From a virus: a DNA stretch of 64,000 nt. The position numbers and the translations under genes are program-made. The stretch covers positions 1 through 64,000 of the IMG/VR virus record IMGVR_UViG_3300028569_002586; one strand, 5' to 3'. Of this stretch, positions 30,963 to 36,036 are shown piece by piece. The stretch's first letter is position 1. Every line of letters begins with the position of its first letter. The notes beneath the pieces are model-generated. The model saw only the letters and a program-made list of their open reading frames with translations, ran no database searches and had not been told where the DNA came from.

Positions 30963-32135
30963 TTAAGAAATATATGTTCTAAAATTAGATAAGTAGCGTG
31001 GGCATCCGGAGCCTCCATCATATATAGAATCTGAATAGTTAGTCGTATTAACAGGTGTAATGCAATTATCCTGAGCAACAATAGCAAGTGGGTTTGGAAT
31101 ATTGGTCCTTAAGTTTTGAAAATCAAGAACTAAATAAAAAGACTCTCCAGCAGTGCACGGAATACTCACATTATAACAAGCAAATTCTGTATTTACATTT
31201 GTACAATAACCTTCTGGAATTTGATACCCTGGACGTCCAGGATCAGGTATGGAAGGACAGTTGCATTTTATATTTATAGGGGTATTTAATACTAGTGTGC
31301 CGCCTGCATTAGTCCCTCTGTAAATTAATAGGTTAGTAACTCCGTTTAAATAATGACTAAACCACCTGAAACATATAGTCCTTAAAGTGCCGGTTTGCGA
31401 TGTTTTAAATCTATAATATATGCTACCGAAGTTTGGCCAACCAGTTCCTCCATGATTTTGAGGTACATTGATATCATTATTTCCTATTATTGTACCTGGT
31501 GTTAATACAGTAAGGGTGGATGTAGGTGTCACAGTGGATGTGGGTGTAGGGGTTTTAGTGGGTGAAACAGTAGGCGTTGGTGTTGGTGAAGGAGGCACCA
31601 CATTTACAATATTAATGCTGCCAGCCATGCCGCCATGGTATTGGCAATTGTAGTACAGAGTGGATGGAGCATCATACGGAACAACAAATGTCAATGTGCC
31701 ACTCTGTGTGCCATTGCCTGTTACACCTGTATTGTATGCATTGCCGGTGCCTGTGGATGAAATGGTCTTTATCCAGAAAGGATGGCCTGAAGCATTCACA
31801 TTGAATATATAAGTTTCGCCTTCTGTAAGAGTAAGGGTAGGGTTTGATTGTCCGTTAATTACGTAAGCTCCTGATCCTGCATTACTCACATTAAAAATAT
31901 TTGATGCTGTTGTGGGTGTTATTGTGGGCGTTTGTGTTAATGTAGGGGTTCTTGTCACAGTGGGTGTGACTGTTTTGGTTGGTGTTATGGTGGGGGTGAC
32001 TGTTTTGGTTGGTGTCATGGTGGGGGTGGGTGTGGGTGAAAGATCAGGTGTGGGTGTCACAGTAGGTGTGACTGTAATGGAAGGTGTCACTGTAGGTGAC
32101 ACAGTTATGGAAGGAGTCACAGTGGGTGTTGCAGT
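30963..32135 (-). CDS. C-terminal part of split adhesin: PT linker + cupredoxin-like domain + PT linker + Cys-rich beta domain
   Basis: in frame with 32136..33938 across a single TAA; GHPFWI...LYYNCQYHGGMAG. Confidence 0.65.
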   Translation of the reverse strand, partial: TATPTVTPSITVSPTVTPSITVTPTVTPTPDLSPTPTPTMTPTKTVTPTITPTKTVTPTVTRTPTLTQTPTITPTTASNIFNVSNAGSGAYVINGQSNPTLTLTEGETYIFNVNASGHPFWIKTISSTGTGNAYNTGVTGNGTQSGTLTFVVPYDAPSTLYYNCQYHGGMAGSINIVNVVPPSPTPTPTVSPTKTPTPTSTVTPTSTLTVLTPGTIIGNNDINVPQNHGGTGWPNFGSIYYRFKTSQTGTLRTICFRWFSHYLNGVTNLLIYRGTNAGGTLVLNTPINIKCNCPSIPDPGRPGYQIPEGYCTNVNTEFACYNVSIPCTAGESFYLVLDFQNLRTNIPNPLAIVAQDNCITPVNTTNYSDSIYDGGSGCPRYLSNFRTYIS

Positions 32136-33984: not shown

Positions 33985-36036
33985 TCATGATATGGCTCCT
34001 AAATACTGTCCTGTGCCTCCTGGAGTCACAGCATAGCCATTCAGATTAATACATTTACCAGCAGCACCACCTCCGTAGTTTGATGTCTTTGACCCAGCAC
34101 AACCAGCCCCCGCGCCCGCAGCTCCTAAGCTTCCACCAGCTCCCAATAGCTGGGCGCCTTTGGCACCGCCTGTTTTGTAAGTACCAGCACCACCATTACC
34201 GTTCGAACCGCCTGTACCTGCAGTACCAACTGTAATACCCGCGCCACCAGCTCCTGAACCACCTCCACCAGGGCATTGTTGATATACACCGCACCAAGGC
34301 CAATTACACCCACCTGATCCACCACCACCACCGCCAATAATGCCACTATTTTGTATAGTTAGATTATAATTTAAATTGATGGCAGGTCCACCAGCTCCAC
34401 CACTTGAGTTTGTTCCCCCAGCATTACCACCTTTGCCAGCTACCATACCATTAGCAGGTGAATTTGTTGCATCAGATACTGCAGGTACAATGAGCGTAAC
34501 AGTGGACCCCGCAGGCCATACACCTGTGTCCAATGCAGCAGTTGCAGAAGAAGAACTACCAATGTTGCCTGCCACAGTGAATTCCACATTTCTTGCACCT
34601 GCAGGCACTCCGTAGGTTGCCACATATGCATCATACAGATTCACATTGTTGGTGTTGGTACTGGCTGCACCTATTGTCACAGATTGTGTGGTGGGCGATG
34701 CAGTAGGTGTCACTGTGGGTGTGGGTGTGCGTGTCACTGTGGGGGTGGGTGATACTGAAGGTGTCACAGTGGGTGTCACAGTTTTTGTAGGTGTTACAGA
34801 AGGTGTAGGTGTCATGGTGGGTGTTTTTGTAACTGTAGGTGTGTTTGTTGGTGTGGGAGTTGGTGAAGCGTCCATTGTTTTGGTGGGGGTGACTGTGGGT
34901 GTGAGTGACACAGATGGTGTCACAGTGGGTGTTCTGGTGGGGGTGGGTGTCATGGTGGGTGTTCTGGTGGGAGTGAGTGTGGGCAATACTTTGAGACGCA
35001 AAGAATATGGCACTTTTCTGCTTGTGATCAGATAAGCAGATCCAGGTTGCATCACGGTCAATGTATTTTCAATTTGCAATGGATCATATTCATCAAATTC
35101 AACAAGTGAGGATTGATCTGTGCTGGTGCCAATCACCTTGATGGTGTTGCTCATATCTATGCCAGGTAGATAATTTTCATAGTCTATATTTTGAATGTAC
35201 TGAACATATTCAGTAATTTGCACATTGGCAAAAATGGGTGTGGTGGTTGGAGTAACTGTGGGTGTAGGTGTCCTGGTAGGTGAAACTGTTATGGAGGGTG
35301 TAACTGTGGGTGAGACTGTTTTAGTAGGTGTCACAGTTGGAGTGACTGTTTTAGTAGGTGTCACAGTTGGAGTCATTGTAGGGGTAGCAGTAGGGGTAAC
35401 TGAAGGTGTTATAGTAGGAGTTATAGTAGGTGTAACAGAAGATGTTGGTGTTACTGTAGGGGTTACTGTAGGTGTAGGTGTTTGAGTGGGTGTAGGTGTA
35501 GGGGAAGGAGTTGGGCAAAGATTAGACTGAGCTACAGTTGGCAGTCCACCAAAGGTACTACCAAAACCTGTAGCTACTGTACAGTAATAGACTGTGCCTG
35601 TAACAAGTATACCTAAAGAATTGAGAGTGAGGCTAGGTGCAGTACTACCAAGAAAATACCAACTCACCATGCTAGCACAATAATCAAATGTAGTGTATGG
35701 TATGATGGTTATATTTTTGCCAATGGTAATAGTTGTCATGTAGCTACAGTCACTAAATACCTGAGTGCCAAGGCTAGTAACACCATTGCCTATGGTTGCA
35801 CTGATTAGATCCTGGCAGTTCATGAACGCTGAATTTCCAATACTTGTCACATTGTCAGGAATAATGAGACTGGTTATCCGTGTACTAGCAAATGCAGAAT
35901 TACCAATACTGGTTACTTCATTACCAAATGTAACTGCGATTAATGGTGATGGCACAAATCTATTATAACTACTTTGTGTTATAATGGTATCAGTACTGGT
36001 AGAAGTGGTACCATTAAGATAATAAAATGTTGTCAT
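33985..36036 (-). CDS. adhesin-like protein: BspA-type LRR + PT linker + shared anchor domain + PT linker + gp38-like glycine-rich tip
   Basis: VTSIGNSAF..C..L.S.TIGNGVTSLG repeats; C-terminal VAGKGGNAGG...GGAGGPAI...LTIQNSGIIGGGGGG. Confidence 0.8.
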   Translation of the reverse strand: MTTFYYLNGTTSTSTDTIITQSSYNRFVPSPLIAVTFGNEVTSIGNSAFASTRITSLIIPDNVTSIGNSAFMNCQDLISATIGNGVTSLGTQVFSDCSYMTTITIGKNITIIPYTTFDYCASMVSWYFLGSTAPSLTLNSLGILVTGTVYYCTVATGFGSTFGGLPTVAQSNLCPTPSPTPTPTQTPTPTVTPTVTPTSSVTPTITPTITPSVTPTATPTMTPTVTPTKTVTPTVTPTKTVSPTVTPSITVSPTRTPTPTVTPTTTPIFANVQITEYVQYIQNIDYENYLPGIDMSNTIKVIGTSTDQSSLVEFDEYDPLQIENTLTVMQPGSAYLITSRKVPYSLRLKVLPTLTPTRTPTMTPTPTRTPTVTPSVSLTPTVTPTKTMDASPTPTPTNTPTVTKTPTMTPTPSVTPTKTVTPTVTPSVSPTPTVTRTPTPTVTPTASPTTQSVTIGAASTNTNNVNLYDAYVATYGVPAGARNVEFTVAGNIGSSSSATAALDTGVWPAGSTVTLIVPAVSDATNSPANGMVAGKGGNAGGTNSSGGAGGPAINLNYNLTIQNSGIIGGGGGGSGGCNWPWCGVYQQCPGGGGSGAGGAGITVGTAGTGGSNGNGGAGTYKTGGAKGAQLLGAGGSLGAAGAGAGCAGSKTSNYGGGAAGKCINLNGYAVTPGGTGQYLGAIS

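Follow-up and report, generated by a model that had tools for sequence, protein, structure and literature searches.

The host range of phages is usually explained by rigid trimeric fibres whose N-terminal anchor is conserved and whose tip can be swapped. In cellulosomes, the type I dockerin (PF00404) comprises two tandem segments of ~22 residues, each with an Asp/Asn-rich calcium-binding loop followed by a helix, and binds cohesin. Modular phage receptor-binding proteins combine a conserved virion-anchor part with exchangeable distal domains and show domain mosaicism (Smug et al. 2023, PMC10684548). In this study, we analysed a window of 64,000 nucleotides, the whole stretch of DNA considered here, from an uncultured, freshwater-type, divergent T4-like myovirus. 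Two adjoining genes of its tail region, A and B, encode proteins in which globular domains are strung on Pro/Thr-rich (PT) linkers around a small central domain, termed aA or aB. Our preferred reading, to which we give a probability of roughly 55%, is that both proteins are virion-associated tethered adhesins in which the core docks, the heads bind the host and recombination in the linkers swaps the heads. A literature search on PT-linker phage fibres and dockerin-like virion display found no precedent for such an arrangement among the papers covered. The features of the locus are the following.

30043..30825, minus strand: gene C, a third PT-linker gene, cut within its first linker
30963..33938, minus strand: gene A, a 991-codon frame with one interrupting TAA
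30966..31514, minus strand: distal 183-aa domain of A with 8 Cys
31515..31604, minus strand: A linker 3, residues 779-808
31605..31907, minus strand: cupredoxin-like domain of A (phrog_677), common to the C-termini of cyanophage gp9-like and fibre proteins
31908..32276, minus strand: A linker 2, residues 555-677, holding the TAA and the second copy of a 47-nt repeat
32136-32138, minus strand: in-frame TAA, codon 601, within A linker 2 and after aA
32277..32537, minus strand: aA, A-type central domain, 87 aa
32538..32903, minus strand: A linker 1, residues 346-467, holding one copy of the 47-nt repeat
32904..33938, minus strand: A N-terminal head, residues 1-345, RCC1-like beta-propeller (PF25390, 3.7e-49; PF00415, 7 repeats)
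33985..36036, minus strand: gene B, 683 aa (BspA-LRR, PT linker, aB, PT linker, gp38-like adhesin)
33988..34689, minus strand: B C-terminal head, gp38-like adhesin (PF05268; phrog_11439, 6.9e-16)
34690..34986, minus strand: B linker 2, residues 351-449
34987..35235, minus strand: aB, B-type central domain, 83 aa, orphan, predicted mostly beta-strand
35236..35523, minus strand: B linker 1, residues 172-267, Pro/Thr-rich
35524..36036, minus strand: B N-terminal head, residues 1-171, BspA-type leucine-rich repeats (PF13306, LRR_5, 1.6e-20)
36033..40175, minus strand: 1380-aa structural gene (LRR and MBG domains) upstream of B, conserved backbone flank
62138-63907: tail sheath gene

Genes A and B belong to the tail and baseplate module of this phage. 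They lie inside an unbroken 30-kb run of minus-strand baseplate and fibre genes (18987-49132), in the order gp25, gp6-like baseplate wedge, large PKD/LRR/MBG proteins, B, A, NHL, S74-fibre and FG-GAP proteins. Among the baseplate and fibre products of the run are proteins of 1380, 1051, 1148 and 620 aa. The ATG of gene B overlaps the stop of the 1380-aa gene upstream (ATGA), which is itself well conserved in relatives (91% amino acid and 92-93% nucleotide identity). The truncated gene C is complete in a related locus (L004), where it encodes 535 aa. A megablast search with the region and the baseplate genes against GenBank phages returned no match.

The original prediction, made from the window alone, described both genes as a head, a PT linker, a central domain, a second PT linker and a second head. 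This layout holds for both genes; in A, however, a third PT linker separates two distal domains, so that its order is RCC1 propeller, linker, aA, linker, cupredoxin-like domain, linker and Cys-rich domain. The limits proposed for the central domains (32287-32531 and 34988-35233) agree with ours. As for the heads, the RCC1, BspA-type LRR and gp38 assignments are borne out by Pfam. The N-terminal head of A contains seven RCC1 repeats that fit the profile, and that of B scores 73.8 bits against the PF13306 gathering cut-off of 27.7. The C-terminal head of B (residues 454-681) scores 34.7 bits against the PF05268 gathering cut-off of 25 and covers model positions 5-216 of 218; two relatives, P0004 and P0010, also pass this cut-off. 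In an alignment of four such proteins, which are otherwise 74-79% identical, invariant Gly runs stand beside hypervariable segments that cannot be aligned, and Gly-rich motifs and hypervariable segments alternate in this way along the head. A tblastn search with this head found no gp38 of cultured phages.

The cupredoxin assignment fared less well, since neither Pfam nor a PDB sequence search gave a match to cupredoxins. Residues 678-776 of A match instead the C-terminal domain of the cyanophage 'gp9 baseplate wedge tail fibre connector' (phrog_677, 8.5e-27). By tblastn, this domain occurs in 349 phage records, nearly all of them from cyanophages, with 61% identity to P-SSM5. An Atlas feature search gave a score of 0.93 against a cluster in which 17% of the members carry PF00127, a value to be taken as a lead only. 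The domain also has a GHPF motif upstream and C-x2-H-x2-M near its end, a putative His/Cys/His/Met ligand pattern that recurs in a second copy of the domain in another locus (L008). The 183-aa Cys-rich domain had no relatives in our searches, and tblastn with this head returned no match.

Gene A does not form a single open frame: the TAA at codon 601 divides it into two ORFs, of 600 and 385 aa. In P0002, the closest relative, a Gln is aligned to this position. Recoding or suppression of the TAA was considered and rejected, as TAA is the commonest stop of the genome (63 of 96 long ORFs) and the only tRNAs present are Gln(CTG) and Met(CAT), with no suppressor tRNA in the genome. As gene A thus comes to a stop past the core, both distal domains are probably not made in this genome.

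Relatives of these proteins show how the domains are combined elsewhere. We examined eight proteins from ENA and JGI metagenomes, all from short-read assemblies. Besides the window's own combinations, aA occurs between a BNR-like head and an unknown domain, and between a BNR-like head and a large BNR-like domain. One locus (L004) encodes RCC1-aA-BNR-like and an aB-gp38 protein without an N-terminal head; this one-headed form, with its conserved N-terminal part and variable C-terminal adhesin, has the usual layout of a receptor-binding protein. Another locus (L005) encodes RCC1-aB-gp38 and an LRR-aA protein, the contigs of which break off within the linker, and its comparison with the window reveals that RCC1 and LRR heads have been exchanged between the aA and aB types. 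The LRR head of P0011 matches PF13306 at 1.1e-58. In P0002 and P0006, aA is 97-99% identical to that of gene A and the linkers are 73-88% identical, with unrelated N- and C-terminal heads. Thus, close relatives keep the conserved part and differ in the distal domains. Homologues do not always carry the same heads, since those of aA differ at both ends and those of aB at the N-terminal end; the C-terminal head is gp38-like in all seven aB-type proteins, gene B included.

The distribution of similarity points to the linkers as the place of exchange. Genes A and B form a variable island of 66-78% nucleotide identity between flanks of 92-93%, and the similarity breakpoints, where mapped, fall inside the PT linkers or at the junction of linker and head. 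In the RCC1-aB-gp38 protein of L005, the linker matches gene A of the window at its RCC1 end and gene B at its aB end, changing over at residues 369-383. The identical linker blocks that had been predicted are also there, as an exact repeat of 47 nt (31990-32036 and 32827-32873, in A linkers 2 and 1); codon-shuffled linkers gave longest matches of 11 nt on average and 17 nt at most. Altogether, these comparisons directly support the proposal, already made in the original prediction, that the PT linkers act as crossover zones, with a middle module that stays constant while the heads around it are shuffled. The head swaps could in principle be assembly chimeras, given that short-read metagenome assemblies were used and that repetitive linkers can yield chimeric joins. 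This explanation is unlikely, as three samples each yielded the same L005 arrangement, the upstream gene joins RCC1 outside any repeat, and the reads probably exceed the longest exact linker repeat (47 nt) in length.

The central domains are the constant element of these proteins. Identity of aA is 97-99% in four relatives (P0002, P0006, P0009 and P0011), and that of aB is 84-93% in six. Codon comparison indicates that aA is under purifying selection, with ratios of synonymous to non-synonymous differences between loci of 8:3, 12:3 and 10:4. No relatives of the central domains were detectable beyond this phage lineage in the databases searched. A phmmer search with aB against 1.84 billion representatives recovered its own cluster only and no aA protein. 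Likewise, nothing was found in IMG/VR scans with P0004 and with aA, or in a GTDB genome scan with aA. A PDB profile search gave nothing below E 0.2, no meaningful match came from Pfam or PHROGs at E up to 10, and an Atlas feature search gave no usable match. Within the 157-kb record as a whole, an HMM search returned the two known copies only. The AF2 models, with a pLDDT of 42.7 for aA alone and 54.7 for aB with a six-row alignment, are too low for a confident fold; these low-confidence models predict mostly beta strand. In a wide structural search, the best hits were to Ig-like domains (Z about 4.5-4.6), which for such a model is within noise.

The alignment motif of the original prediction fits the 18 columns that are invariant across both types in a six-sequence alignment, but the likeness is weak (22 bits by BLASTP at E 4e-4, with 24% identity across 54 aa) and the homology marginal. 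It is doubtful, but conceivable, that the two small domains are unrelated and have only their position between linkers in common, in two separate modular genes with no shared anchor family. The hhalign probability of 7.5% (P 0.0047), the cross-type HMM E-values of 0.032 to 2 and the failure of the aB phmmer search to recover aA would fit this account. On the other hand, besides the BLASTP match, the local score of aA against aB stands at z 4.9 above shuffles, of which 5 in 5000 equal it (p about 0.001). Moreover, each type HMM has the other type as its best non-self match and in the same register, and the two domains share equal length and position as well as the invariant columns. We therefore regard aA and aB as probably homologous, as distant paralogues, on a likeness that remains faint.

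Under the preferred reading, the A and B proteins of this divergent T4-like myovirus would be 'beads on a string' adhesins on its virion. Their core, aA or aB, is small, conserved and predicted to be beta-rich, and flexible Pro/Thr tethers of 95-125 residues lie on either side of it. The tethers may be glycosylated, and the window holds glycosyltransferase genes elsewhere. They lead to globular binding domains, namely RCC1 or BNR-like propellers, LRRs, the gp38-like polyglycine adhesin and the cyanophage fibre-tip cupredoxin-like domain, and these heads would bind structures on the host surface. The core is inherited with the phage backbone and most likely docks the protein on the baseplate or fibre apparatus. 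We infer such docking because the core is the sole constant globular part and because the genes are located in the baseplate and fibre run. Heads would be replaced through recombination inside the repetitive linker DNA, so that the two cores carry differing sets of heads from one relative to another. If the constant module docks in this manner, it would represent a minimal, portable handle of ~85 residues for arbitrary binding domains on a myovirus particle, and would show how adsorption can be diversified in uncultured freshwater phages while the fibres themselves are left as they are.

A more specific version of this proposal, which we advance only tentatively and hold to be somewhat improbable, is that aA and aB are two orthogonal plug-in modules docking at two distinct baseplate or fibre sites, a two-socket and two-headed display reshuffled through linker repeats. 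Were this true, any globular domain tethered by a PT linker on either side would be displayed on the particle, in a system cellulosome-like in function and unrelated in sequence. The proteins could also be virion adhesins in which the centre is a constant carbohydrate-binding or Ig-like spacer for weak general adhesion, and a head provides the attachment. In cellulases, PT linkers are the classical connection between carbohydrate-binding modules and other domains, and the weak structural matches were to Ig-like domains, although these came from a low-confidence model and are within noise. The gp38 match covers nearly the whole Pfam model, including the part that binds the fibre tip in T-even gp38, so that the gp38-like head, constant in the aB-type proteins, could be the attachment site instead of aB, for instance through its N-terminal subdomain. 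However, the heads of the aA series are all replaced, N- and C-terminal alike, so that none stays constant to act as attachment site, and we consider this alternative unlikely.

It is very unlikely, in our view, that the proteins are absent from the virion, being soluble proteins that are set free at lysis or work within the infected cell, with an incidental position among tail genes. Their sequences give no readable signal of virion incorporation, the RCC1, LRR and BNR-like domains have folds of general use in binding proteins or glycans, and gene A tolerates a nonsense codon here. Nevertheless, the same-strand run and the overlap of the B start with the upstream stop tie these genes to the baseplate and fibre module. 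Furthermore, two of the heads come from tail-fibre families (gp38 and the cyanophage gp9-like C-terminal domain), and host-range genes typically form variable islands of this kind, with conserved flanks. The virion-associated tethered adhesins that we favour also come with natural chimeras, which offer defined pairs to separate virion attachment from host binding.

Compared with known systems, the locus resembles cellulosome dockerin-cohesin display by analogy, as variable domains on Pro/Thr tethers would share a small constant module of two types. The original prediction had called the anchor dockerin-like. This label can stand only as an analogy, since direct reading of aA and aB shows no internal duplication and no calcium loop, Pfam gives no dockerin match at E up to 10, and the domains are predicted to be beta-rich, unlike the helical calcium-binding repeats of dockerins; no cohesin-like partner was identified. 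The C-terminal head of B resembles T-even gp38 in passing PF05268 and in the alternation of Gly-rich motifs and hypervariable segments among relatives. Nevertheless, T-even gp38 is a free-standing protein of about 260 aa, and here the head is not a separate small protein capping the fibre tip: a PT linker, of 99 residues in B, joins it to aB in all seven aB-type proteins, and in some relatives it is also tethered to a second head. Residues 678-776 of A correspond to the cyanophage gp9-like C-terminal domain, but as one PT-tethered bead past the stop codon, with the rest of the gp9-like protein absent. The closest likeness is to modular receptor-binding proteins, shared in the tail module, the conserved part linked to the backbone, the replacement of distal domains among close relatives and the variable island. 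Unlike in those proteins, the constant part here occupies an internal position in the majority of forms and has exchangeable heads to either side of it, long low-complexity Pro/Thr tethers take the place of fibre shafts as connectors, and one pool of heads serves two anchor types. The heads also differ from the usual trimeric fibre tips in being globular propeller, LRR and cupredoxin-like domains. In this sense, these close relatives display a different construction, in which monomer-type binding domains on long flexible tethers flank a tiny constant module and the DNA of the tethers would itself be the substrate for recombination.

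ORF calling with translation table 11 placed three minus-strand ORFs in 30963-36036. Two of them form a single frame, gene A, split by one TAA (32136-32138) within a Pro/Thr (PT) linker, and the third is the adjacent gene B. Together with domain profiles, these calls confirm the coordinates and the head-linker-core-linker-head layout of the original prediction, whose description of gene A lacked the in-frame stop and the third PT linker. The label "cupredoxin" for the 100-aa domain of gene A is a lead.

Features of genes B and A (residues counted along each frame)
33985-36036 (-): gene B, ORF of 683 aa
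Gene B, 1-171: BspA-type LRR head (PF13306, 1.6e-20)
Gene B, 172-267: PT linker 1
Gene B, 268-350: central domain (core) aB
Gene B, 351-449: PT linker 2
Gene B, 450-683: gp38-like head (PF05268, 34.7 bits against a cut-off of 25; phrog_11439, 6.9e-16)
32136-33938 (-): gene A, first ORF, 600 aa
30963-32120 (-): gene A, second ORF, 385 aa, GTG start
Gene A, 1-345: RCC1 propeller head (PF25390, 3.7e-49)
Gene A, 346-467: PT linker 1
Gene A, 468-554: central domain (core) aA
Gene A, 555-677: PT linker 2, with the TAA as codon 601
Gene A, 678-776: 100-aa domain, cupredoxin-like (phrog_677 C-terminus, 8.5e-27)
Gene A, 779-808: PT linker 3
Gene A, distal domain: 183 aa, eight Cys

The window covers the opening 64 kb of an IMG/VR virus record of 157,011 bp, whose completeness CheckV puts at 74%. 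Genes A and B lie within an unbroken minus-strand run from gp25 to an FG-GAP protein, and the ATG of gene B overlaps the stop of the upstream gene.

Genes around A and B
62138-63907: tail sheath gene
48653-49132 (-): gp25 (PF04965)
46789-48651 (-): gp6-like wedge protein (phrog_219, 1.9e-41)
Between the gp6-like gene and B (-): proteins of 1148 aa (PKD), 1051 aa and 1380 aa (LRR, MBG)
Past A (-): 260-aa PT-linker ORF (gene C), then 1111-aa and 541-aa (NHL) proteins
22475-24085 (-): S74-chaperone fibre
After this fibre (-): FG-GAP protein, 772 aa

This position in a baseplate and fibre run, together with two heads from tail-fibre families, makes it highly likely that the products of genes A and B are virion adhesins. 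By sequence comparison, the phage is distant from cultured phages: identity between its gp6-like protein and cyanophage gp6 is 25.9%, and megablast of the modular region and baseplate genes against GenBank phages gave no match. The cupredoxin-like head (31605-31907, minus strand) shares 61% identity with a Prochlorococcus phage P-SSM5 protein annotated as hypothetical. The domain is present in 349 phage records, cyanophages with few exceptions, and frequently forms the C-terminal end of proteins named 'gp9 baseplate wedge tail fibre connector'. Together these matches are a possible hint of a picocyanobacterial host. Directly upstream of gp25, 49784-51183 (-) encodes a dUTPase and a clamp-loader-like AAA+ protein (Gp44 lid domain), so genes for replication directly adjoin those for the baseplate on one strand.

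Relatives were found by word-indexed searches limited to the central domains and by a scan of JGI metagenome contigs, and their domain calls were checked against Pfam. The ENA relatives (e.g. P0002 and P0006) are known as protein sequences only. Across these relatives, identity to the window is 97-99% for aA and 84-93% for aB.

Heads carried by the two cores in the window and its relatives
Window: aB gene, LRR, aB, gp38; aA gene, RCC1, aA, (TAA), cupredoxin-like, Cys-rich
P0002 (ENA, 992 aa): aA gene, BNR-like propeller, aA, 300-aa domain without assigned family
P0006 (ENA, 1345 aa): aA gene, BNR-like head of P0002, aA, 690-aa BNR-like domain
L004, L003 (JGI): aB gene, 13-residue PT leader only, aB, gp38; aA gene, RCC1, aA, BNR-like (1009 aa)
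L002 (JGI): aB gene as in L004; contig stops just past it
P0003, P0004, P0005: one-headed aB, gp38 form, as in L004
L005, L006, L007 (JGI, three samples): aB gene, RCC1, aB, gp38 (854 aa); aA gene, large LRR, aA, contig end within linker

These combinations on near-identical cores indicate that RCC1 and LRR heads are swapped between the aA and aB core types. The predicted head shuffling holds for both ends of the aA proteins and for the N end of the aB proteins, but not for the aB C head, which is gp38-like in every one found. In the relatives' alignment, this head varies mostly in the segments that separate invariant Gly runs, which is the known pattern of the T-even gp38 family. L004 also has an extra ORF of at most 279 aa (P0008, 4395-5234), with no clear family, between its aB and aA genes; it is missing from the window and from L005.

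The identical DNA blocks predicted in the linkers correspond to a 47-nt exact repeat in gene A (31990-32036 and 32827-32873), whereas the longest match in codon-shuffled linkers averaged 11 nt and reached at most 17. The proposed use of PT linkers as crossover zones is borne out by P0002, L004 and L005, in which similarity ends within linkers or at the linker-head junction. Between gene A and P0002, similarity spans the start of linker 1 to the end of linker 2, with cores 97% identical, linkers 85-88% identical and heads unrelated. Gene A aligns with L004 DNA from its start as far as 31901, the junction of linker 2 and the next head, and the similarity of gene B begins at 35272, twelve codons ahead of aB. 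The first linker of L005 resembles the A linker of the window at residues 336-368 and the B linker plus aB at 384-470, so the switch lies in a PT-coding stretch of about 15 codons. DNA identity is 92-93% for the flanking genes and only 66-78% for A and B where alignable, and aA codon differences between loci are 8-12 synonymous versus 3-4 non-synonymous. Together with the mapped similarity ends, these values indicate that purifying selection maintains the cores, which are inherited along with the backbone, and that the heads are replaced.

Repetitive linkers could mislead short-read assemblers, and the head combinations could be assembly chimeras; several contigs indeed terminate inside linkers, so repeats do limit assembly. 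Evidence against chimerism is that three samples independently yielded the L005 arrangement, that the point where its upstream gene meets RCC1 lies outside any repeat, and that its heads are divergent alleles (RCC1 61% and LRR 35% identical to those of the window). Moreover, reads are probably longer than the 47 nt of the longest exact repeat in the linkers.

The stop in gene A is possibly a sequencing error. The Gln that P0002 has aligned with this codon suggests that CAA changed to TAA at codon 601. Recoding or suppression is unsupported, as the source genome uses TAA as its main stop codon and its tRNA set consists of Gln(CTG) and Met alone. The predicted product would end in a short linker stub after RCC1, linker and aA, and would lack the cupredoxin-like and Cys-rich domains unless translation restarts. 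Downstream, gene C (30043-30825, minus strand) is a 260-aa ORF, 90% identical over 260 aa to the front part of the L004 protein. Unlike the full gene of L004 (8361-9968; 535 aa arranged as N domain, PT, 95-aa domain, PT and short tail), it stops inside the first linker. The S74-chaperone tail-fibre gene that follows gene C in L004 (9978-11267; P0014, PF13884) is missing at the window counterpart, where a tRNA-Gln(CTG) (29877-29949, plus strand) and short ORFs lie, and has apparently been lost or replaced. The TAA, the truncated gene C and the missing fibre make the A-to-C part of this genome look eroded or rearranged.

The cores aA and aB are 24-25% identical. BLASTP aligned them with 22 bits (E 4e-4), and their local alignment score, 4.9 SD over 5000 shuffles and matched or beaten by 5 of these, was higher than that of either core against any head. 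An aB-type HMM ranked the aA protein top among the genome's 1439 frames (E 2). In the related loci, the first non-self hits were aB proteins for the aA HMM (E 0.032) and aA proteins for the aB HMM (E 0.4), both in the correct register, and the 18 columns that are invariant in an alignment of six sequences (three aA, three aB) reproduce the predicted motif. The expected alignability of the cores is upheld by motif, register and BLASTP, but the signal is weak, with an hhalign probability of only 7.5% (P 0.0047). Homology of aA and aB is probable, short of established.

In the aA series only the core and its linkers are constant, so that, should the protein sit on the particle, the core is the sole candidate attachment site. 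The one-headed aB-gp38 form, in turn, is laid out like an ordinary receptor-binding protein, with a conserved N-terminal part and a variable C-terminal adhesin. Both observations favor, as the best reading (probability about 0.55), a putative role of the core in docking the protein onto the particle. For gene B, a live alternative is that the gp38-like head might dock, aB then having another role. Part of T-even gp38 binds the fibre tip, and the gene B head covers almost the whole Pfam GP38 model, this part included. As for docking by the core, the "dockerin-like" anchor initially proposed would be an analogy of function only, as the core has no dockerin features. AF2 models of the cores are mostly beta strand, with low confidence (pLDDT 42.7 for aA and 54.7 for aB), and the best structural match, to Ig-like domains (Z 4.6), is within noise. 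Searches of 1.84 billion representatives, IMG/VR, GTDB genomes, PDB, Pfam and PHROGs gave no core relatives beyond the near-identical ones.

Outside the window, the same record carries three plus-strand paralogues (L008 1200-6653; G000:C1:148199-153652) that share an N-terminal segment, roughly 35 aa long (MPNVPDFR...). In two of them this segment is followed by PT linkers and unrelated domains, one paralogue carries another copy of the cupredoxin-like domain at its end, and an ORF with a GDSGS serine-protease-like motif sits between paralogues. This locus looks like a second set of constant module, PT tether and variable head.

A literature search did not find a design with internal core, PT tethers and exchangeable heads described in phages. 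Mosaic receptor-binding proteins that exchange distal domains are well documented (PMC10684548). In contrast to these, the constant part here is internal and both ends are exchangeable, long PT tethers serve as connectors and bear the crossovers in their repeats, the heads comprise propellers, LRR, cupredoxin-like and gp38-like domains, and one head pool is common to two core types.
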